DNA of 64,000 nucleotides from an uncultured Gammaproteobacteria bacterium (GCA_964407865.1 CAYOXC010000001.1:203978-267977); one strand, 5' to 3'; shown: positions 1,725 through 37,640, numbered from the stretch's first letter. The notes: generated by a model not told the origin, from the letters alone. Translations and numbers: made by a program.

Positions 1725-3077
1725 TTAAAGAGATATCTGAATTTCATTGGAATACACGCCACAAGTACCGCCTAAGTACTCACAAACTCTTACAAAATAA
1801 ACACCACTGCCGTCAAAAGCACTTACTGATGCCGTGCTTTGCTTAGGGTCAGTAAAATATAAATAAGTATCGCCTGTTCTCAGCGGGTATGTAGGACCTG
1901 TTTTTTTAGACCAGACCAATTTAAATCCCTGAGATGATTCTCCTGTAGTATTCCATTTAACCATACCTTCACCGAGATAAGAAAGCGAAATATTTGAAAC
2001 ACGCTGATCTGTTACTGCTAGTTGAACTTTTATCTCATTAGAGTAAACTCCGCATTTTCCCCCCAAATACTCACAGACTCTTACATAATAACTGCCACTG
2101 CCAGAAAAAGCTTCAAGCGAAGAATTTTTTTGATCAGGATTTGTATAATAAAGATATTTATCACCTGATCTCGTCGGATATGTCGGATGTGCATTTTTTG
2201 ACCAAACCACTTTATAACCCTGCGAAGAATATCCGTTGATAACCCACGAAATACTTGCACCGCCGGTCGATTTAAGACTAATGGAGTTAACTGCACCCGA
2301 AACAACCGGTGTTTTTACGGTTTCCACTGGTTTCGTTGTCTTTACCGATGTTTCAGTTTTATTATCGGTATTATTTTCCTCATCCGTTATTAATGATTTA
2401 TCCAAATTTAAATTCCACTTAACAAAGGCATCATTATTATCACTAGTGGTTATTTTAGCCACTCGATTTTCAGCGTTTTTATCTTCGGCATTAACTGAAT
2501 AATATTTACTACCTGCCTCGACTAATACTTCTTTTTCATCTGATCCAAGCACCTTGACTTTACTGTCATAAACCTCCACACCTTTCTTGTTTTCCGTATT
2601 GACCGTTTTGTAAGCGGTACCGACTGACTGATAACTAATATTTTCAACCATCACTTCAAATGACCTATTATTTAATTCAGCAACTCGTGTGTAAACCTGG
2701 CCTTTATCGTTTAAAATAACAAAATTTGTAGAATTTAAAGATGATAGCGTAATTCCGCTATTAGCATTTAGTCTAATCGCACTACCATCATCGAGATTTA
2801 AAATAGCTCGACCATCACCGACAACTTCCATTGAATCTCCCTCACTCAACGCTAAACCAATATTCGCTCTTTTCCATTCTCCGTCAGCAGATTTATATTC
2901 AACCGCACCCTCAACCAGGGCGATCTGACCGCCAATTTTATTAACAGTTTCCTCTTGATTTTCTGGTTCTACGACAGTGTCTGGCCGACTAAAAAAATAA
3001 AAGGCTGTTAATACCACTGCTAAAAAAACAAAAAATATTACTCTTCCCCAAATACTTGGGTTAGTATTTTTTTCCAT
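1725..3077 (-). CDS. secreted FecR-domain-like protein with two tandem ~65-aa Cys-containing C-terminal repeats
   Basis: N-terminal TM segment. FecR-like segment (GQIALVEGAVEY...GDSMEVVGDGRAILNLDDGSAIRL). C-terminal duplicated module GYKVVWSK...VRVCEYLGGKCGVYSNEIKVQL and GFKLVWSK...VRVCEYLGGTCGVYSNEIQISL. Confidence 0.6.
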   Translation of the reverse strand: MEKNTNPSIWGRVIFFVFLAVVLTAFYFFSRPDTVVEPENQEETVNKIGGQIALVEGAVEYKSADGEWKRANIGLALSEGDSMEVVGDGRAILNLDDGSAIRLNANSGITLSSLNSTNFVILNDKGQVYTRVAELNNRSFEVMVENISYQSVGTAYKTVNTENKKGVEVYDSKVKVLGSDEKEVLVEAGSKYYSVNAEDKNAENRVAKITTSDNNDAFVKWNLNLDKSLITDEENNTDNKTETSVKTTKPVETVKTPVVSGAVNSISLKSTGGASISWVINGYSSQGYKVVWSKNAHPTYPTRSGDKYLYYTNPDQKNSSLEAFSGSGSYYVRVCEYLGGKCGVYSNEIKVQLAVTDQRVSNISLSYLGEGMVKWNTTGESSQGFKLVWSKKTGPTYPLRTGDTYLYFTDPKQSTASVSAFDGSGVYFVRVCEYLGGTCGVYSNEIQISL

Positions 3078-3213
3078 AAAAATAAAGCTTATTTGAATTA
3101 AGCTCTCTCAATTTTACTATATTATGCTACCATATCAGTATTATAAAGTCAAAAATATATTGACATTGGGTTGTATATAGCTGTATAATTTTAACGCTTG
3201 TTTCAAAATATAT

Positions 3214-3285
3214 TCCGGGGTAGCGCAGCGGTAGCGCAGTTGGCTGTTAACCAATTGGTCGTGGGTTCGAATCCCACCCCCGGAG
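3214..3285 (+). tRNA. tRNA-Asn (anticodon GTT), no encoded CCA
   Basis: Cloverleaf parsed by hand: acceptor tccgggg/ccccgga, D-stem gcgc/gcgc, anticodon loop ctGTTaa, T-arm gtggg-ttcgaat-cccac, discriminator g. Confidence 0.85.
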
Positions 3286-3297
3286 CGAATGAAAAAA

Positions 3298-3319
3298 CAA
3301 GCCTGCAAGGCTTGTTTTT
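3298..3319 (+). terminator. rho-independent terminator after tRNA-Asn
   Basis: Hairpin caagcctgcaaggcttg followed by ttttt. Confidence 0.7.
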
Positions 3320-3330
3320 GAGTGAGCGAC

Positions 3331-3499
3331 GGGGAGCGACCAAACTGCTTTGGTCGCGTGTGGGATGAGAACGCCGGAGCGATGTCGCGCCGACTTTGCT
3401 GGGAGGCGCGACCGCGAGGCGGTGGCTAGACAAAATTTTCGGAAGAAAATTTTAGTCGAAGCCGAATCCCTAATAGCGAAGCGCCCACCCCCGGAGCAT
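3331..3499 (+). repeat. structured repeat element C, copy 1; candidate ncRNA embedded in a tRNA-Asn-like frame
   Basis: A ~110-nt core (3370-3470) matches 37490-37590 at roughly 90% identity. It has a conserved 7-8-bp GC stem (gtcgcgc[c]...[g]gcgcgac) and an aaaatttt/aaaatttt hairpin with a c/tGGAAg loop. A compensatory change occurs between copies (gac..gtc versus ggc..gcc). A 9-bp hairpin precedes the core. The 3' end repeats the tRNA-Asn terminus cccacccccggagc. Confidence 0.5.
3484..3499 (+). repeat. partial direct copy of the tRNA-Asn 3' end (att-like scar), copy 2
   Basis: cccacccccggagc is identical to tRNA-Asn 3275-3288. It is followed by its own terminator hairpin. Confidence 0.6.
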
Positions 3500-3505
3500 A
3501 TTAAA

Positions 3506-3535
3506 AACACCACCCTTGCGGTGGTGTTTTTAATA
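3506..3535 (+). terminator. rho-independent terminator after repeat C copy 1
   Basis: Hairpin aaacaccacccttgcggtggtgttttt. Confidence 0.7.
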
Positions 3536-3589
3536 TATTCTGAGGATGCGGGATGAGAAGTTTATACCCCGAGAGCGAAGCGGAGGGGT

Positions 3590-3606
3590 AAATCCCACCC
3601 CCGGAG
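3590..3606 (+). repeat. partial direct copy of the tRNA-Asn 3' end, copy 3 (with a core-deleted C-like flank at 3545-3589)
   Basis: aatcccacccccggagc. Preceded by gggatgagaa...gcgaagcg, which parallels the flanks of C copy 1. Followed by the hairpin at 3614-3647. Confidence 0.55.
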
Positions 3607-3613
3607 CAAATAA

Positions 3614-3647
3614 AATAGCATGGATTTATCCCATGCTATTTTATTTT
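3614..3647 (+). terminator. rho-independent terminator
   Basis: Hairpin tagcatgg-atttat-cccatgcta followed by ttttatttt. Confidence 0.65.
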
Positions 3648-3871
3648 GTTTCGTGGTGATGATTCGAACGGCAAGGAATAAAAACGGGATTTTTCACTTG
3701 TCGAGTAAAGTTCACGAATTAAAATTGTAATAATAATAAATAAGTAATTATAACCGATAAACATTATCTAAAAACATACCAATTATTGAAGCATTTGAAA
3801 TATACGGATTAATGAGTTAATATAAAACAAATTGTTCTTTTACAAAACAAACACCAAAAAAGGATACAAGG

Positions 3872-5695
3872 GTGAAGAATATGGTTATCAAAAGAAAAAA
3901 AACAAAAGTGCTGATGGTTTACCCGTCATTTCCACCATCGTTCTGGAGCTTCAGTGAATCGATGAAACTGCTCGGACTTGGGGCAATAATGCCACCGACT
4001 GGCCTAGTAACAGTTGCTGCCATGCTTCCAAAAGAATATTTCGACATATTGCCGATCGCTGACCTAAATATCAAACCATTATCGGATAGCGACCTTGAAC
4101 AAGTTGATATGGTTATGATATCTGCCATGGTAGCTCAAAGGAAATCGTTTCGTGAAACTATTGAGCGAGCAAAATGTCACGGTAAAACCGTTGTTGTCGG
4201 CGGTCCTTACCCAACTTCTTACAAAGAAGAAGTACTGCAAACGAGAGCCGATCATCTTATTCTGGGCGAAGCAGAATTAACTCTTGAGCCATTTATTACA
4301 GATTGGCTGAATGGTTGCGCTGAACAAATCTACGACGAAAAAAGCGTTCACCCCCGCTCAAATGTAGTATTGACGCGTGAGGGCAAACCGCTAATGTCGT
4401 ATTCGCCTGTCCCCCGCTGGGATTTGGTTGACTTGTCGCAGTACTCATCAATGACAATGCAGTTTTCCAGAGGATGCCCTTTCAACTGTGAATTCTGTGA
4501 TATAACTGCGCTTTTCGGCCACATTTCTCGGACCAAAACACCTGCTCAAATAAATAGCGAACTAGACGAGATCTATAAGGCTGGCTGGCGTGGCTCAATT
4601 TTTATGGAAGATGATAACTTCATCGGAAATAAATTGAAAGTTCGTGAACTTCTGCCATCGATTGCCGAATGGCAAAACCGACACAACTACCCCTTTTCGT
4701 TCTACACAGAGGCCAGTCTCGATCTCGCAAATGAAAATATGCGCGATATCAGGGAAAACATGGTTTACGCCGGTTTTCAGGAGGTATTCGTTGGTATAGA
4801 ATCAGTTAACCCTGATGTGCTGAACCAAATGGGAAAAAAACAAAATAAGGGCGATCTTGGCGAAAAAGTAAAAATTCTCCAGCAGGCTGGGCTTGAAGTT
4901 ACTGGTGGCTTTATTATCGGCAACGACGAGGATAAGCCCTCAGTATTTAACGAGCTCTTCTCCTTCATCCAAAAAAATGGAATCGTTATTGCCATGGCTG
5001 GTCTTTTGACTGCTTTTCGAAATACCTTACTCTACAAGCGCCTTGCTTCTGAAGGAAGAATAAGAGCTGAAACATCAGGCAATAACGTTCATCGGTTTGA
5101 GTTCAATTTTGACCCCAAACTTGATGAGCGGATACTGATTGAAGGCTATGTTGAGCTGCTCCAACAACTCTATTCTTCGCGCAATTATTATGACCGCTGT
5201 CGCACCTTAAGACAGAGGCTGTCTCGCCGCTACCGCAAGATTAACATAAATTACAAAGTTCTAATTGCTGCGGCGAAAATAATAATCCTGAACATCTTCA
5301 AGCGGCCTGATTGGTACTTCATCAAGTATATTGCACGCACTCTTATTAGCGCACCCTTAAAAACAAGTGAAGCGCTCAGACAAGCGATCCAATTCGCCCA
5401 CTTCAAAAAAATCACGCAAGCAGCTGTCGATGCTCATCGCTATCCTGTGCAAGTTGAGTCTCTAATCAAGCGATTTAAAAGACGCGCGTCTGCTCTGCAA
5501 GGTGATGCCAATAAGTGCCTGAAAAAATTGTCGCGTTTGGAGAGGCAGACTATCAAAAAAGCAACTAAAATCTACCACTCTCTCGATCCTGATTTTCGCG
5601 CCGGAGCAAAGGCATACTATGAAAACTGCCGCTTGCGGCTTCATTCCTATGCTGACAGTTATCGGCAAAAATGGCTTGCCCTACCCACCGCTTAA
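3872..5695 (+). CDS. B12-binding-domain radical SAM protein (class B rSAM, DUF4070-like C-terminal extension)
   Basis: N-terminal cobalamin-binding-like region and a CPFNCEFC (CxxxCxxC) radical-SAM cluster motif. GTG start with an upstream aagga; an alternative ATG lies at 3881. Confidence 0.85.
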   Translation: MKNMVIKRKKTKVLMVYPSFPPSFWSFSESMKLLGLGAIMPPTGLVTVAAMLPKEYFDILPIADLNIKPLSDSDLEQVDMVMISAMVAQRKSFRETIERAKCHGKTVVVGGPYPTSYKEEVLQTRADHLILGEAELTLEPFITDWLNGCAEQIYDEKSVHPRSNVVLTREGKPLMSYSPVPRWDLVDLSQYSSMTMQFSRGCPFNCEFCDITALFGHISRTKTPAQINSELDEIYKAGWRGSIFMEDDNFIGNKLKVRELLPSIAEWQNRHNYPFSFYTEASLDLANENMRDIRENMVYAGFQEVFVGIESVNPDVLNQMGKKQNKGDLGEKVKILQQAGLEVTGGFIIGNDEDKPSVFNELFSFIQKNGIVIAMAGLLTAFRNTLLYKRLASEGRIRAETSGNNVHRFEFNFDPKLDERILIEGYVELLQQLYSSRNYYDRCRTLRQRLSRRYRKININYKVLIAAAKIIILNIFKRPDWYFIKYIARTLISAPLKTSEALRQAIQFAHFKKITQAAVDAHRYPVQVESLIKRFKRRASALQGDANKCLKKLSRLERQTIKKATKIYHSLDPDFRAGAKAYYENCRLRLHSYADSYRQKWLALPTA

Positions 5696-13288: not shown

Positions 13289-14582
13289 TTTTGTTTAAAA
13301 TCTCTCTGGCGACCTGACGATCGTCCCATGGAATCTTTTTTCCCTTAGCGACAATGCACGGTTCTGTTCCTTTGGCTGTTATAGCTGCCACGTCTCCAGC
13401 CTCTAGTAAGCTAATCGCTTTTTCAATACCCTTACGACGATCGACTTCAATAAAGAGATTTTTATTGTCAATCTTGCCGGCTTGCCGCGCCCCAAACGCC
13501 AACATCTCTGCGATTTCAGTCGGATCTTCATCAAAACAATTAACATCAGTGATTATTACAACATCGCATAAACGCCCGGCAATTTCGCCCATTAAACTGC
13601 GCTTACCTTTATCCCGACCGCCTCCATCAGAGCCGATTACTCCTAAAACTTTGTGTTCTTGCCCAACTATCTTACGTAAACTAGAAAATAATTCTTTCAA
13701 ACTCATCGGTTCGTGGGCGTAATCAACAACAACCTTAAATGGTTGTCCTTCATTTATAAATTCCATTCTTCCCTCGATTGATTTAACCGATGATATGCCG
13801 TTAGCTAACATTTCATCCTCTATTCCTTGCGACCGAGCAACGGCTATTGCGGCTAATGCATTGTAGCCGTTAAATGAGCCAGGAATTTTTACAGAAAAAA
13901 TCTTACCGCCAGCCAATTTTATATCAAAACCATTTTCTGTTTCGCCTTCAATCTGTGCTGTTATTAATTTAGTATGCTGTGGCGCAGCGATATTTTTAAA
14001 ACAATATACCCATTTTTCATCTGATTTATTGTTTAAAAAATACTGAAAATTTTCATCATCACCATTAGCAATGATTATCTTTTTTACTTCCTTATTGTCA
14101 ATTATTTTATTTTTTCTTTTGCTTAGGCCGGTAAATATCTTTGCCTTATCACGACGTAAATTTGCGAAACCTCCGTGACGCTCTGAATGTTCTGAACCTA
14201 AATTTGTAAAAACGCATATATCATAATCAATACCAACATGTCTGTGTTGCAAGATTCCTTCTGAAGAAGTTTCAATTACTGCATAACGACAACCAGCTTC
14301 AACCATCTTTTTTAACATTGACTGAATATGACCGCGTCCAAGCATGGTCATTTTTTGTCGATTTAACTCTCGCTTGTCTGCAATTTGAAATTCAACTGTT
14401 GAAAGCAGTCCGACTTTATGACCTCCAGCTTGGAGCGCTGAAGCAACAAACCGGCAGGTCGATGACTTTCCTTTTGTCCCTGTAACACCGACTACAATTA
14501 ATTCTTTTGAGGGACAACCATTTATCCATGCTGAAAAAACAGCAATAAAATAATGGTAAAAACTCTTTAAAATTTTCATCAT
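13257..14582 (-). CDS. Mur ligase family protein (MurE-like)
   Basis: VVGVTGTKGKSST P-loop and VVVDYAHEP (MurE-type DYAHxP) motifs. 441 aa. Confidence 0.65.
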   Translation of the reverse strand: MMKILKSFYHYFIAVFSAWINGCPSKELIVVGVTGTKGKSSTCRFVASALQAGGHKVGLLSTVEFQIADKRELNRQKMTMLGRGHIQSMLKKMVEAGCRYAVIETSSEGILQHRHVGIDYDICVFTNLGSEHSERHGGFANLRRDKAKIFTGLSKRKNKIIDNKEVKKIIIANGDDENFQYFLNNKSDEKWVYCFKNIAAPQHTKLITAQIEGETENGFDIKLAGGKIFSVKIPGSFNGYNALAAIAVARSQGIEDEMLANGISSVKSIEGRMEFINEGQPFKVVVDYAHEPMSLKELFSSLRKIVGQEHKVLGVIGSDGGGRDKGKRSLMGEIAGRLCDVVIITDVNCFDEDPTEIAEMLAFGARQAGKIDNKNLFIEVDRRKGIEKAISLLEAGDVAAITAKGTEPCIVAKGKKIPWDDRQVAREILNKNGYRSVYVAK

Positions 14583-15154
14583 AACCCTTTTAAGCTAACC
14601 TCATAGACAACCTGCTCTAACTTATGGAGAGCTTGCTTTGCCTGGTCAAATTTCTGACGACTATATCCTGTCAAATTCATGTCGACTAATTCAACAATTA
14701 TCATCTCGGCAATATCATGACATTTTTTAACTTTATCAAAATTCTTTTCTGTCGCAGATTTGATTGCATATCTTAAAAGCTCTCCCGGCACATCACACAA
14801 CCCGGTGATATAAATGTCCGCTTCAACCTCCGGGTCTTTAAAACCGCCAACTTTTTCATCCTTTAGACACTGTCTAAAAATAGCAGCCTCAGTATATTCT
14901 TCTAAAGCCGCACGATAAGACCCTTCGTTTTTTAGCTTATTGTCATTCTTGATTATATTGTCCGCTTCTTTAAATCTTTCCACAGCTTCTTGCAACAAAT
15001 TATCGCCTCCTTCAAAATCATCCCGCTGAAAGGCAAAAATAGCCTTTTTTGACTGCTGTTCAATGTCACCCGACAACTTTATCAGTTCTCGCCTATAATT
15101 TGAGTAATTTAATAATTTTTCGCGAATTTTAGAAAAAAATGTCTTATCCAACAT
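14579..15154 (-). CDS. hypothetical protein, translin-like
   Basis: Weak resemblance to the translin fold pattern (AIFAFQRDDFEGG... / GLCDVPGELLRYAI). Confidence 0.35.
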   Translation of the reverse strand: MLDKTFFSKIREKLLNYSNYRRELIKLSGDIEQQSKKAIFAFQRDDFEGGDNLLQEAVERFKEADNIIKNDNKLKNEGSYRAALEEYTEAAIFRQCLKDEKVGGFKDPEVEADIYITGLCDVPGELLRYAIKSATEKNFDKVKKCHDIAEMIIVELVDMNLTGYSRQKFDQAKQALHKLEQVVYEVSLKGL

Positions 15155-15314: not shown

Positions 15315-15387
15315 GGTCCGGTAGCTCAGCTGGTAGAGCAGTTCCCTTTTAAGGAAAAGGTCCTGGGTTCGAATCCCAGCCGGATCA
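15315..15387 (+). tRNA. tRNA-Lys (anticodon TTT)
   Basis: Acceptor ggtccgg/ccggatc, D-arm gctc-agctggta-gagc, anticodon loop ctTTTaa, T-arm ctggg-ttcgaat-cccag. Confidence 0.85.
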
Positions 15388-15449
15388 CAAAATAAAACAC
15401 TCTCGTTTTGCGAGGGTATTTTATTTAGAGAGTCGGTTTGGTGAGAACC
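15371..15449 (+). repeat. 79-bp direct repeat, copy 1 (tRNA-Lys T-loop to 3' end plus downstream terminator)
   Basis: 78 of 79 bases identical to 15550-15628. Confidence 0.85.
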
Positions 15450-15549
15450 CACAAAGGATGTATGTTCAAGAGTTATTTGTCTAAAAGTGATATACGTTGA
15501 TTTGCAGATTTGACCTCGGGAGGTTTTCCTCAAGGGGGCTTGCCCCATC

Positions 15550-15628
15550 GAATCCCAGCCGGATCACAAAATAAAATACTCTCGTTTTGCGAGGGTATTT
15601 TATTTAGAGAGTCGGTTTGGTGAGAACC
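15550..15628 (+). repeat. 79-bp direct repeat, copy 2 (att-like duplication of the tRNA-Lys 3' part)
   Basis: gaatcccagccggatcacaaaataaaatactctcgttttgcgagggtattttatttagagagtcggtttggtgagaacc. Confidence 0.85.
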
Positions 15629-15658
15629 AATAAAGGACTAATTTATTGTCAGAATAAA

Positions 15659-26639: not shown

Positions 26640-27365
26640 CTATTTAATAAGCTCAGTTGCCCCATTAGCATCGTGACGATTATTTACCGTTTCGTCACCG
26701 GCGATGACCCCGTCCTTAATTCGTAAAATTCTTTTTGCGTGTTCGGCAGTATATCTTTCATGGGTTACCAATATTATCGTATGCCCTTCTTTATTTAAAT
26801 CTTGAAGTATTTTCATTACTTGCAGTCCAGATTTAGAATCTAAATTACCCGTTGGTTCATCGGCAAAAATTACAGATGGTTCGTTAACCAATGCTCGAGC
26901 TATGGCGACTCTCTGTTTTTCACCGCCTGAAAGCTGGTTTGTCATATACTGCAAACGATGTGATAAACCAACGGCGTTAAGCGAGGCTGTGGCTAAACTC
27001 AATCTTTTTTTCTGAGACATTTTTAAATACACCAAAGGAAGCATTACATTTTCGAGAACTGTAGTCCGAGGCAGAAGGTTAAAAGCTTGAAATACAAAAC
27101 CAACCTGATCACTACGCATTGTCGCTAATTGATCATCGGTTAATGTACTTACATCACGGCCTTCAAATAAATACATACCTTCTGATAAGCGGTCAAGAAA
27201 ACCTAAAATATGCATTAGTGTTGATTTTCCAGAACCTGACGGACCCATTATCGCCAAAAACTCTCCCTTATTTATTTTAAAAGAAAGGTTATGTAAAACA
27301 GGTGTAACCACATCTTCATTGACGTATTTTTTACTCAAATTCTTTACCTCAATAATTGGAACCAT
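26640..27365 (-). CDS. ABC transporter ATP-binding protein (MacB/LolD-type)
   Basis: [35 protein letters not shown]. Confidence 0.9.
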
Positions 27366-29177: not shown

Positions 29178-30620
29178 TTATTTATTATTTTTTAAATACT
29201 TATTTTTTATTTTATAAAAATATTCTAAGGCTGAATCGTGCTCATTGGGGATAATGCCGTCCAGAATCGCCTCTTCAATGTCTTTTTTAATCATCCCAAC
29301 TACTGGACTAGGTTTAATTTTACACAATTTCATTATCTCTTCTCCTCTAACCGGCGACTGAAAAGCCCTCAACTTATCCTTCTCTATCACTTCAGCGATT
29401 CTTTTTTCTAATCTATCGTAATTTTTTAAACGCTTTTCTTTTTTTAAAGGATTTCCTGTAGTTATGTCAGAACGACCTAAAATTAACAAGTCGTTAAGTT
29501 CATCGCCTAAATTAACTATTAACCTGCGAACAGCTGAATCAGTGATACCTTCGTCCATAAGAGATATTGGCTGCTGGTGCCACCGGACTAATTTTGATAA
29601 ATATAATATCTGATCTCGAGAAAGCCGTAAACGACTACCGATAGATTTAACCATTTTCCTACCTACATGCTCATGCTGATAAAATGTCCAACCGGTTTTT
29701 GGTAAAAATTTCTTTGTTGCTACTTTGCCAATGTCATGAACAAGTCCAGCAAATCGCAAAAAAGTATTATCAGTTTTTTCAGCTATATTATCAACTACTT
29801 TAAAAGTGTGTACTAAATTGTTTTTATGCTGATGGCCATAAACTTCTTCTACCCCATCTAGGGCAGATACCTCAGGTAATACAATGTCTAGTATCCCGGT
29901 CTGAAACAATAAAACTAAACCTATCGACGGCTCATTGCATGAAAGTAGTTTTAACAACTCCTCGGATATTCTTTCTCCTGAAACAATTTTAAGCCGACTA
30001 CAATTTTTATTCATTGCTTTAAGTGACTCTGCTTCAATACCGAAGTTCAGTTGAGCAGCAAATCTAGCTGCGCGCATCATTCTAAGCGGGTCGTCGGTAA
30101 ATGTTTTATCGGGCTCTAGAGGAGTTCTTAAAATCCTATTCTTTATGTCCTGAACCCCTTCACAAGGGTCAATTAATGATTTTTTAATTTGCAGTAATGT
30201 TGGCTTTCTTGTTTTGGTAAATAAATCGATCGGCAATGCCATCGCATTAACAGTAAAATCACGTCGCAATAAATCTTCTTTTAAACTTGCTGTTTTTACC
30301 TTTGGCTTTCGTGACTTTGCTGTATAAGACTCGCTTCTAGCTCCGGCAAACTCAATCACAACTGTATGATCACCCTCGCTTACAATATATCTCGCTGTAT
30401 CAAAATCAGGAAATTCAACTAAACTGCCGGTTATTTTCTTGGACTTATCCAGTTCCTTGGCAAAATCAAGGCCTCCATTTTCAACAACAAAGTCTAAATC
30501 TTTTTTTTGGTCAATACCTAAAATCAAATCGCGCACAAAACCTCCTACAATATAAACCGGCGTTTTGCGCTTTTTCGCAACCGCAGAAATTGCTCTAAAT
30601 ATGTCCGTTGTCTTAACCAT
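29178..30620 (-). CDS. cca: CCA-adding tRNA nucleotidyltransferase (poly(A) polymerase head domain plus HD domain)
   Basis: GGFVRDLILG...DLDFVV nucleotidyltransferase motif. HD domain (HDIGK). Confidence 0.8.
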   Translation of the reverse strand: MVKTTDIFRAISAVAKKRKTPVYIVGGFVRDLILGIDQKKDLDFVVENGGLDFAKELDKSKKITGSLVEFPDFDTARYIVSEGDHTVVIEFAGARSESYTAKSRKPKVKTASLKEDLLRRDFTVNAMALPIDLFTKTRKPTLLQIKKSLIDPCEGVQDIKNRILRTPLEPDKTFTDDPLRMMRAARFAAQLNFGIEAESLKAMNKNCSRLKIVSGERISEELLKLLSCNEPSIGLVLLFQTGILDIVLPEVSALDGVEEVYGHQHKNNLVHTFKVVDNIAEKTDNTFLRFAGLVHDIGKVATKKFLPKTGWTFYQHEHVGRKMVKSIGSRLRLSRDQILYLSKLVRWHQQPISLMDEGITDSAVRRLIVNLGDELNDLLILGRSDITTGNPLKKEKRLKNYDRLEKRIAEVIEKDKLRAFQSPVRGEEIMKLCKIKPSPVVGMIKKDIEEAILDGIIPNEHDSALEYFYKIKNKYLKNNK

Positions 30621-32258: not shown

Positions 32259-32332
32259 CGGGGTATGGCCTAATTGGCTATGGCGCACGCTTCGGGAGTG
32301 TGAGGTTCCGGGTTCGAGTCCCGGTACCCCGA
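32259..32332 (+). tRNA. tRNA-Pro (anticodon CGG)
   Basis: Acceptor cggggta/taccccg, anticodon loop ttCGGga, T-arm ccggg-ttcgagt-cccgg. Confidence 0.8.
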
Positions 32333-32462
32333 CTAAACGGATGTCAAGTGGCAGATGCGGCGGGATTTTGTCACTTCTGTGTATAAGTCACATCGGCAAA
32401 TCGCATTTCTGCCATCTTAGCTACCGTTTGAAATTAAAAAACACCGTTTTTCGGTGTTTTTT
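32333..32462. repeat. repeat B, copy 1 (structured about 130 bp, ends in a bidirectional terminator hairpin)
   Basis: gtcaagtggcagatgcggcgggattttgtcacttctg...aaaaaacaccgtttttcggtgtttttt. About 75-80% identical to 34912-35042. Confidence 0.75.
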
Positions 32463-32493
32463 GAATTTTGTTAAATACTATTGCTTTTTCAAT

Positions 32494-33258
32494 TTACAGT
32501 CGTCTCTCTAATAATTTTTTTTGATCCTTGGCAAAAACCTCCGGATCAGGATTGTTCCAATTGAATTCATTGAATATCTGCATCGTTTTTTCTAAAGATA
32601 GATTAGCGTATTTATCAACCAATTCATCTACACAATATTGGCTTTTTAATACGATAGGGTTGTATTTACATGTATATGCATTAAATAACTCGCGAAAACC
32701 GTGATCCCAAAAACATAAAGTTCGATTTTTAACACCATGCAATTCAATAATAATTTCGATATTACTATTTCTGTCCAGAGATATATTTTCTATCATTTTC
32801 TTAGTAAATAAATATATCTCCGTAACACTATATAGGGCATTTAATACCGATAGATATTTGTTATCAATGGTTTTATCTTTCAATTTTGAAAAAACATAAG
32901 AATTAGCCAACTCTTCTTTTTTTTCCTCGGTCATTCGATAATCCTCGAGCATTGAAAAAAAATGAATAAATTGTCCATCTTGATAGTATTGCCAATATTC
33001 TAAATGCCCCATGTCCGGCCAATTTTCAAGCGACATAACGCTCGAATGAGGCGCCGCTTCAATACCACTTTCACGATTGATGTGCGGATAATCCCAACCT
33101 CTTAGTCTTATATTACTTTTAGTAATAACCTCCTTTAACTCCGGAGTCGTTTTAATTCTTATATCTACACGCTCTACTGGCCGAACGATAATTTTCCAAT
33201 ACCCTTTCTTTTTTATTGTTTCTAATAAATTAATAGACATATATTTAACTAATTTCAT
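32494..33258 (-). CDS. hypothetical protein (cassette 1, gene 3), translationally coupled to the AlbA_2-like gene
   Basis: 254 aa. TAATG stop/start overlap with the upstream gene. No recognisable domain. Confidence 0.55.
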   Translation of the reverse strand: MKLVKYMSINLLETIKKKGYWKIIVRPVERVDIRIKTTPELKEVITKSNIRLRGWDYPHINRESGIEAAPHSSVMSLENWPDMGHLEYWQYYQDGQFIHFFSMLEDYRMTEEKKEELANSYVFSKLKDKTIDNKYLSVLNALYSVTEIYLFTKKMIENISLDRNSNIEIIIELHGVKNRTLCFWDHGFRELFNAYTCKYNPIVLKSQYCVDELVDKYANLSLEKTMQIFNEFNWNNPDPEVFAKDQKKLLERRL

Positions 33259-33980
33259 TATAACAGGCCATCTCTCTTTAGCTCTTTCTCATATTCCTCT
33301 TTAAAGCGAATAGAACTAATTTTTTGAACTGCCTTTTTACTTCGTTTTCCCTGTATTAATCTAGAGCATATAAGATGTAAATCGCTGTTTACTATTTCTT
33401 CTCTGTAACCCAGTAGCCTCGTAACTAGCGCTTTCCACTCTTCGGGTTTTTCAACAGATTTAGACTCGACAGGGTTATTTGCGCGTATATAAACTGACCC
33501 ATGTTTCAAATAATAGGTTTCACGTCGATTCTCTATTATTATTTTATAGTCTTTCTTACATATAACCGGTTCTGAACTATTTGCCTCCAAAATTTGTAAA
33601 ACAATAAATTTCTTTTCCTCGCCCTGCAACTCAACGTTGCCACCGTATAACTTTAATTTGACCGTATCATACAGATATCCATTAATGAATCTGCTAATAT
33701 TATCGATATTATTAAATGAATTGAAATCTTCAACAGTTAAGCCAATTCGTTCAAACTCTTCTGCCTGGCCTTCTCCTCTACCAGGTTGCTTAATTCCTAT
33801 ATAAATATTTCCACCATTAACTGTATTAGCAAAAGCTGTAACAGCTTTAATAACTTCTCCCTTTATACATCTTGAACCTTCGTCTCTGGCACTCCAATTA
33901 AACGGCGGCTTAAATTCAATATTCAAATCTTCACTTCCATATTCAATTGTATTAATCATGTTATCAGTTAACGTCTCCAT
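33258..33980 (-). CDS. AlbA_2 / Schlafen-like putative DNA-binding domain protein (cassette 1, gene 2)
   Basis: N-terminal E..LEFK...AFANT.GG.IYIGI pattern characteristic of the AlbA_2 (Schlafen-like) domain. Confidence 0.55.
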   Translation of the reverse strand: METLTDNMINTIEYGSEDLNIEFKPPFNWSARDEGSRCIKGEVIKAVTAFANTVNGGNIYIGIKQPGRGEGQAEEFERIGLTVEDFNSFNNIDNISRFINGYLYDTVKLKLYGGNVELQGEEKKFIVLQILEANSSEPVICKKDYKIIIENRRETYYLKHGSVYIRANNPVESKSVEKPEEWKALVTRLLGYREEIVNSDLHLICSRLIQGKRSKKAVQKISSIRFKEEYEKELKRDGLL

Positions 33981-34023
33981 ATAAAATGCATTCTTACTTA
34001 ATCAAACATCAATAAAAACTCCT

Positions 34024-34689
34024 TTATAAAATATTACTTTTCCCCAAATTGCATTTTGAACATAATGTCTGTAGATTTTCCAACACAGTTTCACCGTTTC
34101 CGCTCCACGGTTCAATATGGTCAATGTGAAGAACCACACTCTGATCCGTTGCAGGACTTCGACCACATTTTTTGCATGCAAAATTGTCTCTTTTTAAAAC
34201 CTGGTAACGCAAACGCAAAGAAATATCCCGAGGAGTCTTCTTGATCTTTGTAATAGTAGTTTTTTTCTTTAATTTAGATATATCTAGTCCACCGACGTAT
34301 TTGATAAATTCTTTCACCGCCGCGGACCATGAGCCGAATCTTTTTTTATAAGCGCTGGCCTTAATCATCGAAATAGATGAATCCATATCGCCTTGTCTGG
34401 GTTGCTCACCCTTTTTCTGCCAAACCATTAATAGATTGTTAAACAAATCTTCATTTGAATGGCGGCTAATCTTGGCTACACCTAATCCGGCCTGCGCCAA
34501 GGCTGCGTTCCAGGTTCTAAATCGACGTTTTATGCTAGTGGAGCTATATTTGCCGTTTTTATTATAAATCTCCTGGGACAAAGAATCGACTTTTAGTTTT
34601 TTAGCAACCACTTGCAAATCCTTAATTAAGTCTGATGATTTTACAGGTTGATTTGGTGGTGGTATATAAATTATACTATCTGACGACAT
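34024..34689 (-). CDS. HNH endonuclease with two N-terminal homing-endonuclease-associated repeats (cassette 1, gene 1)
   Basis: C-terminal HNH motif CKKCGRS...HIDHIEPWSGNGETVLENLQTLCSKCN. Two KRRFRTWNAALAQAGL / KKRFGSWSAAVKEF repeats. Confidence 0.75.
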   Translation of the reverse strand: MSSDSIIYIPPPNQPVKSSDLIKDLQVVAKKLKVDSLSQEIYNKNGKYSSTSIKRRFRTWNAALAQAGLGVAKISRHSNEDLFNNLLMVWQKKGEQPRQGDMDSSISMIKASAYKKRFGSWSAAVKEFIKYVGGLDISKLKKKTTITKIKKTPRDISLRLRYQVLKRDNFACKKCGRSPATDQSVVLHIDHIEPWSGNGETVLENLQTLCSKCNLGKSNIL

Positions 34690-34706
34690 ATATTTGATGT
34701 TTTGAG

Positions 34707-34911
34707 TATTATGCCACCCGGTCCTAAGAGCGTCAATTACAGCGGTGGTAAGATTCCGGTAGCTGACAATCTGAGATAAACCTCCCGAACACTGTCCAAG
34801 AAATTGAATACGTTAAACAACCCATCTTCGGTGAACAAAGTGGCACCACCTTTTTTGCCCAACATTAGCGGATCTGGTTTTTTCGGTTCGAGAAATACGT
34901 AATCAGGTCGA
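34707..34911. repeat. repeat A, copy 1 (about 200 bp). Carries a minus-strand promoter and ends in a degraded tRNA-Pro 3'-like segment
   Basis: About 95% identical to 37204-37409. The 3' end ggttcgag...gactaaa parallels the tRNA-Pro T-loop to 3' end. Confidence 0.8.
34708..34736 (-). promoter_or_regulatory. sigma70-type promoter (TTGACG, 17-bp spacer, CATAAT) driving cassette 1
   Basis: Minus strand reads ttgacg-ctcttaggaccgggtgg-cataat. The ATG of the HNH gene lies 18 nt downstream of the -10 element. Confidence 0.65.
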
Positions 34912-35042
34912 CTAAAAGGGTGTCAAGTGGCAGAAGCGGCGGGATTTTGTCACTTCTGGGGATAAGTCATATTGAAAAATAAGCATTTCCGCCGTCTAAG
35001 ATACTGTTTGAAATAAAAAACACCGTTTTATGGTGTTTTTTG
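34912..35042. repeat. repeat B, copy 2 (terminator-bearing)
   Basis: gtcaagtggcagaagcggcgggattttgtcacttctg...aaaaaacaccgttttatggtgtttttt. Confidence 0.75.
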
Positions 35043-35975
35043 GTTATTTATAGCTTTTCTTACCTCATCAATTGTTAAAGGTGGATATTTCAAGTGAATT
35101 ACTCTATGACAATTTGAACAAATCAACAAAATATCTTCAACTGAAGTAGTTTCTCCTTCTTTCATAGACGCAACCGGCTTAATATGGTGTCCCTCTATAT
35201 AATTTTGAGCCAATGAACCATATCTGTCCCTAAATGAAAAACCACATATTTCACACCGCAATTCTCCACTTTTTCGCAAAGCAATACTCTTTGCTTCTTT
35301 AACTATCTTTGCATTTCGTTCCCTGGTGTAATGCTTGATTAACTTTCGTTTTCCTTCTTCAACTTGACCGATGGATGTTCTGAAATCAGTGTCACTTGTT
35401 AAGAGATTGCTGTTAGCCAGATACTGATCATAAAATGCTACAACCTTTTTCAAATCATCAACCAACTCTTCATTATCCGGCATATTTGCCAAGCGATATT
35501 CCTTGTAATAAATAATTGGTTCTTCATAATCGGAACCCAGTCCTTTATCCGCAATTTTTGCTTTATCATCGGACTTGAAGCCTGCTAATTGATAATTTGC
35601 TCTAATATTTATTGCCTTAGCCTTTAATTTACTAAATGCGAGTTTTCTACCGTCGTTTTTGATAGGTTTGGTGATTCCTTGCCCAAGACATAAATACAAT
35701 CTCTTGAAATCTGTTGAGTATAGATAAACAACGTAAACACCTTCTTGTGCTCCGTCTGTTTCATTCTTGTTAAAAATACCTATCCAAGGAACTGAGGTCC
35801 AATTACCCATACCAGCAGAACCTTTTATCGTAAAATCTTCTTCCCTTATTATTGGAGAAATAATTTTTTTACTTTCTTCTCTAATAAATTTAGCTAGGGG
35901 GTGATTTGTAAATGGCTCGTTTGATGCAATTGGATATTTTGACCCAATTTCGCTCAATAACTCTCTAAGAGTCAT
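35028..35975 (-). CDS. McrB-N-like (DUF3578) domain fused to an HNH endonuclease; putative type IV (modification-dependent) restriction nuclease (cassette 2, gene 3)
   Basis: N-terminal FTIKGSAGMGNWTSVPWIGIF...GVYVVYLYS (DUF3578 / McrB N-terminal-like). C-terminal HNH motif CEICGFSF...GHHIKPV...CSNCHRVIH. Confidence 0.7.
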   Translation of the reverse strand: MTLRELLSEIGSKYPIASNEPFTNHPLAKFIREESKKIISPIIREEDFTIKGSAGMGNWTSVPWIGIFNKNETDGAQEGVYVVYLYSTDFKRLYLCLGQGITKPIKNDGRKLAFSKLKAKAINIRANYQLAGFKSDDKAKIADKGLGSDYEEPIIYYKEYRLANMPDNEELVDDLKKVVAFYDQYLANSNLLTSDTDFRTSIGQVEEGKRKLIKHYTRERNAKIVKEAKSIALRKSGELRCEICGFSFRDRYGSLAQNYIEGHHIKPVASMKEGETTSVEDILLICSNCHRVIHLKYPPLTIDEVRKAINNQKTP

Positions 35976-36017
35976 ATAAAATATATTTAATAATTTCTTT
36001 TTTTACGCTTTTGTTCA

Positions 36018-36788
36018 CTAATGAGTAGTTGCCTTACACCAATAACACTTTATTTGATGATCTCTTTTTTTCAGATTTTTTAGCCACACCTCATCATGTG
36101 TAGAATCAATCATTAAGTGTTCAATCAACATTTCAATTCTCTCAAGTAATTCTTTTCCAAGAACTGGGCCTTTTTTTAATAAATCTTCATAGTCCCAGCG
36201 ACTTGATAATAGGTGGTGAATAAGATGGTTACGATACTGATAAAATATTAACATCTTCTCAACCAAATTATAGGGTTTCCATATTTTATTACTCGTACAT
36301 TTTGATAGAATATCACTCATAGTTCCAAGAGTTAATCCACATGTATCAACTAAAAAATACGCATTAAAAAGAACATCATCTATTTTTTTAATTTTTGCGG
36401 ATTTTTTTTTATGTTCATAGAACTTATTACGCAAATATGCGTTCGCCTTTCTGATATTCAATTCCCCATCCTTTGTCCATTTTTGATAGCGACAAATATG
36501 GTTCAATATTTTGTCCCTTGATTGTTTTGCATCTAATTTGCCAGTCTCATACAAAGCTTGTAAAAGCGCACAGACTTCATGCTCAAGTAAAATATTGACA
36601 TTAAATAATTGATATTCAAGCCAATATGTAGTCATCTGTTTATCCGCTTTTGTTTTATCTAGGCTCTTTTCTAAACTACCGAAACTTTGTTCCTCTTTAA
36701 TTCTATTCGCCCAATAAAATCGATCAAAACCAGTAATAAATTTTTTATCACTATGCCTTCTTCCTTTAATTTTTTTATTTTTTGGCAT
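36018..36788 (-). CDS. hypothetical protein with a HEPN-like Rx4H motif (Abi-like) (cassette 2, gene 2)
   Basis: 256 aa. A YRNHLIHH segment fits the HEPN R-x(4-6)-H motif. No other recognisable similarity. Confidence 0.45.
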   Translation of the reverse strand: MPKNKKIKGRRHSDKKFITGFDRFYWANRIKEEQSFGSLEKSLDKTKADKQMTTYWLEYQLFNVNILLEHEVCALLQALYETGKLDAKQSRDKILNHICRYQKWTKDGELNIRKANAYLRNKFYEHKKKSAKIKKIDDVLFNAYFLVDTCGLTLGTMSDILSKCTSNKIWKPYNLVEKMLIFYQYRNHLIHHLLSSRWDYEDLLKKGPVLGKELLERIEMLIEHLMIDSTHDEVWLKNLKKRDHQIKCYWCKATTH

Positions 36789-36798
36789 AGAAATACTG

Positions 36799-37173
36799 CT
36801 ACTTATTCAAAATAAATCGTTTAAGTTTCTCTAGCACTCCCAATTCGCTATCTTTGATGTCCTTATGGCGTTTTCGAGCTGCTACAGCTAAAGCATCGGC
36901 GATTTTATCGAGATATTTATCGACTATAATATTAGGGATATGAATCGTGTCGTAATCGTCACGAGTAATTGACCAATAACTTCTATCAAAGTCAGAAATA
37001 ATTTGTTCTGGATCAGTATAATGGTGAATACCATCAACTTCTATATCAATTCTGGCCCAAGGAATAGTTAGGTCTATATGTTTATCTTCATCCCACTTTT
37101 CAAGTTCACAGTATATTTTCCTCTGCCTCAGGGCATTGAAAAGACTCTGGGCCTGCGGGGTCGGATTTGGCAT
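36799..37173 (-). CDS. DUF559 / Vsr-like PD-(D/E)xK endonuclease-domain protein (cassette 2, gene 1)
   Basis: ORF trimmed to the start MPNPTPQ, downstream of promoter A2. IDIEVDG...D motif pattern typical of DUF559 restriction-endonuclease-like domains. Confidence 0.5.
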   Translation of the reverse strand: MPNPTPQAQSLFNALRQRKIYCELEKWDEDKHIDLTIPWARIDIEVDGIHHYTDPEQIISDFDRSYWSITRDDYDTIHIPNIIVDKYLDKIADALAVAARKRHKDIKDSELGVLEKLKRFILNK

Positions 37174-37203
37174 ATTGCTTAAATATTTTGGATTTAATGT
37201 CTT

Positions 37204-37409
37204 TATTATGCCACCCAGACAAATGAGCGTCAATTACAGCGGTGGTAAGATTCCGGCAGCTGATAATCTGAGATAAACCTCCCGAACACTATCTAAGAAA
37301 TTGAATACGTTAAATAACCCATCTTCGGTGAACAAAGTGGTACCCTCTTTTTTGCCCAAGATTAGCGGATCTGGTTTTTTCGGTTCGAGAAATACGTAAT
37401 TAGGTCGAC
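37204..37409. repeat. repeat A, copy 2
   Basis: About 95% identical to 34707-34911. Confidence 0.8.
37205..37233 (-). promoter_or_regulatory. sigma70-type promoter (TTGACG, 17-bp spacer, CATAAT) driving cassette 2
   Basis: Minus strand reads ttgacg-ctcatttgtctgggtgg-cataat. Confidence 0.65.
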
Positions 37410-37446
37410 AATTTAAGAATCGCCGAAAGGCGATTTTTAAATTGGA

Positions 37447-37603
37447 GGGGTATGGCCGAATGAAACTATTCATTCGGCCAAGGGACTCGAACGCCGGAGC
37501 CATGTCGCGCGAGTTTGCTGACGAGCGCGACGGCGAGGCGGTGGCTAGGCAAAATTTTTGGAAGAAAATTTTAGCCGAAGCCGAGTCCTCCCGGTACCCC
37601 GAC
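37447..37603 (+). repeat. structured repeat element C, copy 2, embedded in a tRNA-Pro-like frame (5' ggggtatggcc, 3' tcccggtaccccgac)
   Basis: 5' and 3' ends match tRNA-Pro(CGG). The interior is replaced by a 9-bp hairpin plus the ~110-nt C core shared with 3370-3470. Confidence 0.5.
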
Positions 37604-37606
37604 AAA

Positions 37607-37640
37607 AATAATACCGCCATTTTGTGGCGGTATTATTTTT
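37607..37640. terminator. bidirectional hairpin terminator
   Basis: aataataccgcc-attttgt-ggcggtattatt, flanked by an A-run and a T-run. Confidence 0.7.

Follow-up and report, generated by a model that had tools for sequence, protein, structure and literature searches.

Integrative elements that enter the T-loops of tRNA and transfer-messenger RNA (tmRNA) genes are known from genomic islands and from phage Ms6 (PMC1762012; bioRxiv 10.1101/2020.11.02.365908), and recombination sites that act as folded single strands are represented by integron attC and by attP(+) of the CTX phage (PMC3458562, PMC5027507). Here, we have analyzed element C, a structured repeat present in two copies in a 64,000-nt stretch of DNA (hereafter the window) labelled as an uncultured Gammaproteobacteria bacterium (GCA_964407865.1 CAYOXC010000001.1:203978-267977). 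It belongs to a widespread and apparently uncatalogued family of small structured RNAs that lie behind tRNA and tmRNA genes in bacteria of the candidate phyla radiation (CPR). Like the T-loop integrative elements, element C is found at tRNA and tmRNA genes, leaves the gene intact while the displaced 3' part forms a direct repeat starting in the T-loop, and piles up in tandem; unlike them, its units measure ~150-250 nt, carry no integrase (for which they are too small), contain an inverted T-arm ~90 nt from the junction and hold a covarying RNA as cargo. With attC and attP(+) it shares inverted segments that rebuild a duplex site on one strand, strand asymmetry, arrays of cassettes and an enzyme presumably encoded elsewhere, whereas it mimics the T-arm and acceptor of the neighbouring tRNA rather than dif or attI, and its centre is a conserved three-way junction and not a variable spacer. 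We regard element C as a variant of the tRNA-targeting integrative elements, with a real chance that it represents a new class.

The conserved core, about 90 nt long, occupies positions 3373-3462 (copy 1) and 37493-37581 (copy 2) on the plus strand. The two cores are 90% identical, as a preliminary description of this DNA had indicated, whereas the flanks of the two copies are 56-58% identical only. Both copies share a fold consisting of a closing helix, a 5' hairpin (H) and a helix P1 that closes a two-hairpin core, in which P2a/P2b/P2c and P3a/P3b form a three-way junction with P1 and a GGAA loop caps P3. The stems reported earlier were recovered: the GC stem GTCGCGC(C)/(G)GCGCGAC is present in both copies, the AT stem shows a compensatory change from A-U to G-C (gAcaaaatttt..aaaattttagTc in copy 1, gGc..agCc in copy 2), and the apical loop reads C/U-GGAA-G. 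Hairpin H precedes each core on the plus strand at 3336-3357 (9 bp, loop CUGC) and 37454-37479 (11-12 bp), and its sequence is unrelated between the copies, again as had been noted. Compared with shuffled sequences, the folds had z scores of -5.7 (copy 1) and -7.7 (copy 2), and the covariance-model search proposed earlier, with a model built from 14 relatives, scored the copies at 159 and 157 bits (E about 1e-43); on both grounds the two copies are not due to chance. No third copy was detected by this model in the window, where the remaining matches reached at most 12 bits, and near-matches to a 14-mer at 26983, 28001 and 44307 were dismissed as chance similarity in coding sequence. Each copy is followed by a stem and T-tract (3503-3531 and 37604-37640), in line with the terminators claimed for them; the first of these is a terminator-like hairpin with an A-tract/stem/T-tract that reads both ways in the sequence, although the terminator scan listed it on the minus strand only. 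The overlapping open reading frames (ORFs), including one of 128 aa at 37234-37620 that runs through element C, are artefacts, because helix lengths vary by non-multiples of three and change through compensatory pairs.

Comparison of the flanks with the tRNA genes bore out the proposed link to these genes, with local tRNA sequence as the frame, but led to a different layout. Rather than replacing the anticodon region, the core is placed within the T-loop, between positions 55 and 56. What frames it on the left is the reverse complement of the tRNA T-arm and not a tRNA 5' half, and hairpin H stands in place of the D and anticodon arms. Of the suggestion that element C is a candidate novel noncoding RNA (ncRNA) or tRNA-targeting miniature element, the structured nature, the tie to tRNA and the absence of an Rfam family thus hold, whereas the anticodon placement and the reading of the left frame do not. 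Downstream of the tRNA come, in this order, a spacer that may contain a terminator, in some units a strand that complements the acceptor 3' strand, H, the left arm, the core and the right arm.

Copy 1 follows an intact tRNA-Asn(GTT) gene on the plus strand (3214-3286; ARAGORN; Rfam tRNA, 73.3 bits) that does not encode CCA. Between gene and unit, also on the plus strand, lie a spacer, D1, with a terminator-like hairpin and T-tract (3292-3319), and a leader, GAGTGAGCGACGGGGA (3320-3335), which contains an acceptor-5'-like strand, GACGGGG (3328-3334), that pairs at 5/7 positions with the distal CCCCGGA. The left arm (3360-3372, plus strand; GTGGGATGAGAAC) is a 13-nt reverse complement of tRNA-Asn positions 53-65 except for GA opposite G57-A58, which gives tandem G.A pairs. 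The right arm (3463-3497, plus strand) directly repeats tRNA-Asn, starting at C56 and running through its 3' end (CGAATCCC..CCCACCCCCGGAGC), and is broken by a 13-nt insertion at 3471-3483 (TAATAGCGAAGCG) that is missing from the right arm of an ortholog (locus L136). In copy 2, all on the plus strand, an acceptor-5'-like strand, GGGGTA (37447-37452), pairs with the distal TACCCC (6/7 positions), the left arm (37482-37492; GGGACTCGAAC) is the exact reverse complement of GTTCGAGTCCC in tRNA-Pro(CGG), and the right arm (37582-37603) repeats the tRNA-Pro(CGG) 3' part from C56 (CGAGTCC(T)CCCGGTACCCCGAC), directly before the terminator. The tRNA-Pro(CGG) gene itself (32259-32333, plus strand; ARAGORN) is 5.2 kb upstream because two tandem islands of ~2.58 kb (32334-34912 and 34913-37409) intervene.

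Additional copies in relatives, whose absence had been named as a point that could overturn the earlier description, were found in number and with covariation. A single scan of a genome collection with a 23-nt pattern returned 13 loci, mostly in Candidatus Magasanikbacteria assemblies, and a metagenome scan with two anchors returned at least 120 loci; as the patterns require invariant junction sequences, diversity is under-sampled and counts of unit-bearing tRNAs are biased. The matches listed, to which the following counts refer, comprise 141 cores in 134 sources. A same-strand tRNA gene ends at most 400 nt upstream of 106 of the 141 cores, mostly 23-102 nt away, and these host tRNAs represent 16 amino-acid types. 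Fifteen of the 141 are at contig ends, and the other 20 have no tRNA within 400 nt upstream: three of them sit behind tmRNA genes (L015, L086 and L110, with the Rfam tmRNA model passing its threshold in L015), and others have a tRNA 1-5 kb upstream with an island between. All units are co-oriented with their tRNA. The labels Gammaproteobacteria and Saccharibacteria given to several of the metagenome-assembled genomes are probably wrong. A phage or plasmid origin was rejected, as IMG/VR, PLSDB and INPHARED contained 0 matches to the core.

The suspicion that element C corresponds to no known RNA family was supported by Rfam 15, which gave an empty scan over the element. At gathering and permissive thresholds, for the window and 26 related loci, tRNA alone (with tmRNA in L015) passed; the best matches over the element were at chance level (for example, rnk_pseudo at 21.7 bits against a threshold of 55), and weak sX4 matches were set aside as they cover a tRNA-Ser part. 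Signal recognition particle RNA, tmRNA, hammerhead and K-turn or box C/D motifs were dropped as identities of the core after comparison by eye. No account of the element was met in the full-text literature searched, whose coverage is incomplete, so that this is absence of evidence only.

The relation between arms and tRNA is consistent across the family. The longest run shared by the right flank and the tRNA from C56 is at least 15 nt in 60 of 90 loci, and in the aligned examples shown the identity usually ends at the tRNA 3' end. The left arm follows the local T-loop, with TTCGATT answered by AATCGAA, TTCAAAT by ATTTGAA, TCCGAAT by ATTCGGA and TTCAAGT by ACTTGAA, and it also tracks the unusual T-loop TGCGAAT; as non-palindromic T-loops show the reverse complement, a direct copy of the T-stem 5' strand plus loop was rejected. 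At 67 positions where the tRNA T-arm and the right arm differ, the left arm complements the tRNA in 58 cases, the right arm in 4 and neither in 5, and in each of the 8 cases with a variant position 55, a base that lies outside the right arm, the left arm follows it. Insertions often disrupt the right arm, as in window copy 1, L011 and L032. Hence, what the left arm is kept to match is the T-arm of the functional tRNA. Among 66 loci with G57-A58, the opposing bases are GA in 39 and Watson-Crick in 26. In 9 of 83 units, H is preceded by an acceptor-5'-like strand with at least 6/7 identity, where permutation gives an expectation of ~1.2; such a strand is absent where H abuts the tRNA. The duplex of left and right arms corresponds to tDNA positions 56-65 and extends to 72 where the acceptor-like strand exists.

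The covarying stems claimed for the repeat were seen throughout the family. In an alignment of 102 distinct sequences, which leans towards structure as the sequences were fitted to the covariance model, standard pairs fill 94.2% of cells, compared with 73.3% for shuffled sequences and 34-47% after partners were displaced by 1-3 columns; this slide control and the raw sequences point the same way. Changes on both sides were observed in 38 of 47 pairs. Helix 1 (hairpin H) is 97.4% paired with all 9 pairs covarying, covariation is also heavy in P2b, P2c and P3b, and P2a (CGCC/GGCG) is invariant across the 102 sequences. G.U pairs outnumber A.C pairs by 110 to 34 on the plus strand, which indicates that the tRNA-sense strand is the one that folds. 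GGAA (GNRA) and UUCG loops and several tandem G.A motifs occur in the family cores. No covariation supporting a kissing contact between the H loop and the P2 loop was seen in the family sequences. The divergent cores L048, L075 and L104 have GCCC/GGGC in P3a in place of GGCU/AGCC. A ~40-nt module, GAGGARRTACTRARGGCCAGYAGGCCGWATGTACT, is inserted in P3 in L065 and L088 and stands alone behind a tRNA 3' repeat after the right arm in L078.

Purifying selection acts on the plus-strand fold formed by the core, H and the left arm. In the ortholog L136, the element lies behind tRNA-Asn in the same layout, beside a radical-SAM gene whose product shares 61% identity; the stems of the element differ from the window copy by compensatory changes and its right arm is uninterrupted. 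The presence of the element at the orthologous tRNA-Asn shows that it has been retained for a long time. Core identity is 0.95 within a contig and 0.73 between contigs, while arms and H differ; judging from these comparisons, the core is evolving in concert within a genome and the arms stay locus-specific.

With respect to expression, the promoter scan placed a 12/12 consensus promoter of tRNA-Asn at 3160-3189 and returned none for either window copy. A T-tract between tRNA and element is absent in 45 of 78 related units (58%), where co-transcription with the tRNA is therefore expected, and present in the other 33, which the window resembles in having a terminator-like hairpin at this place. 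The element is very probably made as RNA, to judge from its position in the tRNA 3' trailer without an intervening terminator in most loci. In the predicted fold of the whole tRNA-Asn and element transcript, the tRNA 3' part and the right arm are competitors for pairing with the left arm and with the acceptor-like strand. Many loci, among them L004, L053, L056, L107, L115, L125, L127 and 3320-3335 of the window, have a leader motif, GAACGAAGTGAG(G/C), directly after the tRNA 3' end, and the mini-hairpin word GCGAAGC is frequent in spacers and occurs in the 13-nt insertion at 3471-3483.

Core C is not the only content of this frame. Arrays of units were found at the tRNA-Asn locus of the window and in L100, L105, L107 and L112. 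In the window, a second unit (3548-3607, plus strand) consists of a left arm (GCGGGATGAGAAG), a 30-nt hairpin cargo (3561-3590, with GCGAAGC) and a right arm (AATCCCACCCCCGGAGC); the terminator scan found a terminator after it at 3608-3646, and the array ends with a degenerate orphan left arm (GGTGATGATTCGAAC; 3655-3669, plus strand). Three small cassettes in L112 look, by eye, like a promoter plus an ORF in the same frame. A near-identical unit with core C abuts tRNA-Lys in L002 and lies 2.5 kb distal, behind four units, in the related L112; this difference in position bears on excision and integration, for which no empty site or circle junction was seen.

Several further observations concern these other cargos. 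At tRNA-Lys(TTT) in the window, a 90-nt module (15369-15458 and 15548-15637, 97% identical) surrounds an 89-nt cargo (15459-15547); it includes T-loop, 3' end, terminator, the acceptor-like strand GAGTCGG and the left arm TGGTGAGAAC, and is without hairpin H. The L112 array (oriented 1875-4760), also behind tRNA-Lys, alternates a ~130-nt module (terminator, ..GTTTGCCAATTCCAAGCGGTGTGGGT.., inverted T-arm) with the promoter-plus-ORF-like cassettes, each of which ends in AAAGTTTGCCAnnTGTCCCGATAAGGTTCAC; the cassette ORFs had no Pfam match. Duplication of the whole module (3' part, spacer and left arm) holds at the window tRNA-Lys and in L112 but was rejected as a rule for every insertion, as a second left arm occurs downstream of 9 of 82 units, compared with 6 in the opposite-strand control. 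A second conserved RNA-like cargo family occupies the same frame in L058 (3744-3890), L100 and L112 (oriented 2740-2860), with the sequence GAAC-(T/G/A)GGGAAAGGG(A/T)GAAAACG..AGTTTTC..GAGGAA(A)GG..GAAAACCCGAAGG.., and has no Rfam match.

The explanation we lean to, which we hold tentatively and at somewhat less than an even chance, is that element C represents one type of cargo in a family of miniature cassettes without a recombinase, which enter tRNA and tmRNA T-loops in Magasanikbacteria-like CPR bacteria; we infer that such a cassette encodes a selected structured RNA co-transcribed with the tRNA. The mobile form would carry its own copy of the tRNA 3' part, so that the circular unit would run from C56 to the 3' end and on through the spacer, the optional acceptor-like strand, H and the left arm to the core. 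One strand exchange at 55|56 would join the carried 3' part to the gene and keep the tRNA intact, and the old 3' part would be displaced behind the core as the direct repeat; reasoning from the sequences, such an exchange yields exactly the observed order of parts. As a single strand, the left arm would pair with the 3'-part copy, close the core and present a double-stranded mimic of the target, as in attP(+) of the CTX phage and integron attC. Newer insertions would stack nearest the tRNA and give arrays, and the recombining enzyme would act in trans. For copy 1, the predicted circle junction joins the core and right arm to spacer D1 (..GAAGCCGAATCCCACCCCCGGAGCGAATGAAAAAAC), without the 13-nt insertion. 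This cassette reading accounts for the tRNA and tmRNA targets, the arrays and the decay of the displaced arm, and an inverted arm is understandable if recombination acts on a folded single strand in which a duplex copy of the target is restored. We count in its favor the target shared across the family, the direct repeat, the inverted arm, the order of parts, the arrays, the other cargos, the lack of a nearby recombinase and the selection at the RNA level. Hairpin-primed synthesis, template switching, IS91/HUH enzymes and strand-annealing repair fail to give a left arm reaching position 53 together with a right arm starting at 56.

Measured against the described systems, element C has the imperfect inverted repeats of attC type that fold on one strand, with the left arm pairing with the tRNA-3'-part copy, and the inverted half-sites of CTX type that rebuild a mimic of the host target on one strand. 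It lacks the attC R''/R' boxes (RYYYAAC/GTTRRRY), of which only ..AAC in the left arm and GTT in the tRNA match, the right junction being AGC and not GTT. Integrons carry promoterless ORF cassettes; the cargo of element C is non-coding, and the gene cassettes of L112 have a promoter-like sequence by eye. No link to IntI or Xer was seen, and no intI is present in the neighborhoods examined. More generally, Pfam detected no integrase, reverse transcriptase, transposase or recombinase among 43 neighboring ORFs, intervening islands included.

A number of points weigh against the cassette reading. The free or circular form, an empty site and the enzyme were all unseen in the sequences examined, and the strand exchange is a step that we infer. 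To be retargeted to a new tRNA, a unit would need changes in its carried 3' part and in its left arm alike. Conservation of the core far exceeds that of the variable centre of an integron attC, and the core has RNA-type motifs that a pure DNA recombination site does not need. Both window copies are preceded by terminators and lack their own promoter. The within-genome identity of cores (0.95 vs 0.73) could be obtained by gene conversion without transposition, and retention at an orthologous site, together with a left arm that matches the tRNA (58 vs 4), fits a host-serving RNA as well.

Such a host-serving RNA is the strongest competitor, which we nevertheless consider somewhat unlikely. Here, the element would be an ncRNA in the tRNA 3' trailer, co-transcribed with the tRNA, whose 13-nt left arm, sometimes extended by the acceptor-complementary strand, would serve as an antisense or guide segment for the T-arm of its neighbor, while the structured core may recruit a protein. 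Such an RNA could control maturation, act in quality control, or guide modification or cleavage around G57-A58; the direct repeat may be a tRNA-like handle for RNase Z/P-type processing or may sequester the antisense arm, and new copies may be rare and homogenized by gene conversion. The tracking of position 55 (8/8) speaks for a left arm that reads the tRNA. Antisense pairing over 13 nt would find a poor target in a folded T-arm, which counts against the proposal. GA opposite G57-A58 (39/66) is a recurrent non-Watson-Crick motif across many tRNA types, whereas 26 of the 66 loci have full Watson-Crick complementarity at 57-58. Strong covariation, G.U bias on the tRNA-sense strand, an orthologous element kept in a distant relative, the 58% of units without a terminator after the tRNA, and the competition between tRNA 3' part and right arm in the full-transcript fold are all in keeping with this proposal. 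On the other hand, the same frame holds a trivial 30-nt hairpin and protein-coding cassettes, which resembles an insertion mechanism rather than a dedicated RNA scaffold, the order of arrays varies between close relatives, and no candidate partner protein was found. The cassette and host-RNA readings are not exclusive, as an insertion-like architecture and purifying selection on an RNA-type fold are both seen.

It is unlikely, though more readily conceivable than the proposals below, that the tRNA and tmRNA genes of CPR bacteria anchor a new cassette system with RNAs or small genes as contents, in which core C would be a guide-like RNA that reads the T-arm or a self-propagating RNA element; in the former case, it may direct insertion or an action on the tRNA itself.

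We consider a retroelement resembling short interspersed nuclear elements (SINEs) very unlikely. The tRNA-like acceptor/T-arm end of the RNA would be the start site for a trans-acting reverse transcriptase, with target-primed insertion of cDNA at tRNA genes, staggered nicks that give a duplication of variable length and snap-back synthesis that gives the inverted arm. Direct repeats do range from ~18 to ~90 nt, a snap-back copy would by reasoning yield an inverted-plus-direct layout, and the Mauriceville retroplasmid of Neurospora starts cDNA at a tRNA-like end and captures tRNA sequences. However, no reverse transcriptase gene is present in any neighborhood examined, the right arms have no added CCA, hairpin H splits the inverted copy, and simple snap-back would not give a left arm reaching 53 beside a right arm starting at 56.

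The least probable proposal, to which we give little credence, is that the units are relics, namely the P-arm/attR ends of deleted integrase-bearing islands that targeted the T-loop, with att-adjacent DNA left behind. A direct repeat of the tRNA 3' end from the T-loop is the classic signature of T-loop integrases, for example in phage Ms6 (PMC1762012), and islands lie between tRNA and element in copy 2, L112, L026 and L008; nevertheless, no intervening island contains an integrase gene and most units lie only 23-102 nt from the tRNA. Decay would not leave 94% pairing with compensatory changes, a G.U strand bias or conservation above that of neighboring proteins, and in a classical attP the core is not accompanied by an inverted copy at a distance of 90 nt.

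Other known classes resemble element C in part. Miniature inverted-repeat transposable elements (MITEs) and small repeats such as Correia, RUP, BOX and REP are likewise small, non-coding, multi-copy and hairpin-forming when transcribed. MITEs have constant terminal inverted repeats and a short target duplication, whereas the arms of element C differ per locus, being local tRNA sequence (56-58% identity, against 90% in the cores), and its repeat of 18 to ~90 nt always starts at C56. The core is thus not the terminal repeat of a MITE, an identity which, together with that of an insertion sequence, had been named as one that would speak against a novel element. One tRNA-like ncRNA is the bacterial Y RNA YrlA (PMC4201824). 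Like tRNA-like ncRNAs and trailer small RNAs (sRNAs), element C is a non-tRNA RNA framed by an acceptor/T-stem-like helix and is located within a tRNA transcription unit; in contrast to them, its T-loop is replaced, it has no D-loop/T-loop elbow, and its tRNA-like parts are copied from and change with the adjacent gene. Further tRNA-like RNAs include mascRNA and viral tRNA-like structures, and sRNAs from tRNA 3' trailers include 3'ETS-leuZ. With regard to YrlA, no Rfam Y RNA match and no rsr gene nearby (no Ro/Rsr context) were found. Transposed archaeal tRNA introns and box C/D guides in pre-tRNA introns occur at non-canonical positions including the T-loop, and some are complementary to their own pre-tRNA. 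They are comparable as related inserts at non-canonical positions across many tRNA species, some with a guide segment, but element C has an uninterrupted tRNA upstream and nothing to splice, shows no evident bulge-helix-bulge and resides in bacteria. A functional tRNA or tRNA pseudogene was rejected, as neither ARAGORN nor the Rfam tRNA model made a call and the unit has one hairpin for the D and anticodon arms and the core for the T-loop. A primer-binding site of retron or long-terminal-repeat type was rejected as well: no reverse transcriptase was found in the neighborhoods examined, the acceptor-like strand has no preceding TGG and H interrupts the complement.

Some features of the surrounding DNA should also be recorded. 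The two tandem islands directly after tRNA-Pro(CGG) share their left ends (32330-32494 and 34909-35073) and a 206-nt right end (34707-34912 and 37204-37409; 93% identical). They encode Schlafen/AlbA_2, an HNH protein with homing-endonuclease repeats, MrcB_N+HNH and ORFs of unknown function, and no integrase was detected in either by Pfam. In each right end, a portion of the tRNA-Pro 3' part is copied directly as GGTTCGAG..GAC. On the minus strand, the 206-nt end is an open frame in both copies (..YVFLEPKKPDPLxLGKKxGxTLFTEDGLFNVFNFLDSVREVYLRLSAxGILPPL, then stop), in which 5 of ~13 differences are amino-acid changes; either a small gene or a fragment of a gene may be present here. Behind another tRNA-Pro(CGG), in L118, a plain direct repeat of the whole T-arm and 3' end (GAGGTTCCGAGTTCGAGTCTCGGTACCCCGAC) surrounds a 53-nt insert without an inverted arm; here, the same type of site bears a distinct att-type scar of classical appearance. 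The gene at 14579-15154 (minus strand), adjoining tRNA-Lys, codes for a Translin-family protein (Pfam E = 6e-20); this family is uncommon in bacteria and, in eukaryotes, is tied to RNA processing. At 29178-30620 (minus strand) lies a gene for a CCA-adding enzyme (PolyA_pol head + HD), in keeping with the tRNA genes and right arms, none of which encodes CCA.

Taken together, our data describe a three-way-junction RNA that is better preserved than neighboring proteins and is covered by no Rfam 15 family. CPR genomes are tiny, yet a sizeable share of the sampled tRNA genes carry units, a share drawn from a biased sample, since loci were selected on the presence of the element. If insertion of the units relies on folded-strand mimicry of the target, the principle of integrons and the CTX phage would be extended to tRNA genes, and the build-up of integrase-less islets behind CPR tRNAs, including cassettes with defence genes, would be explained. 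If the antisense arm acts on the tRNA, element C would provide a bacterial example of an RNA that is locus-specific and targets the tRNA T-arm, and if the proposal of a new cassette system is true, it would represent a new class of target-mimicking or RNA-directed mobile system.

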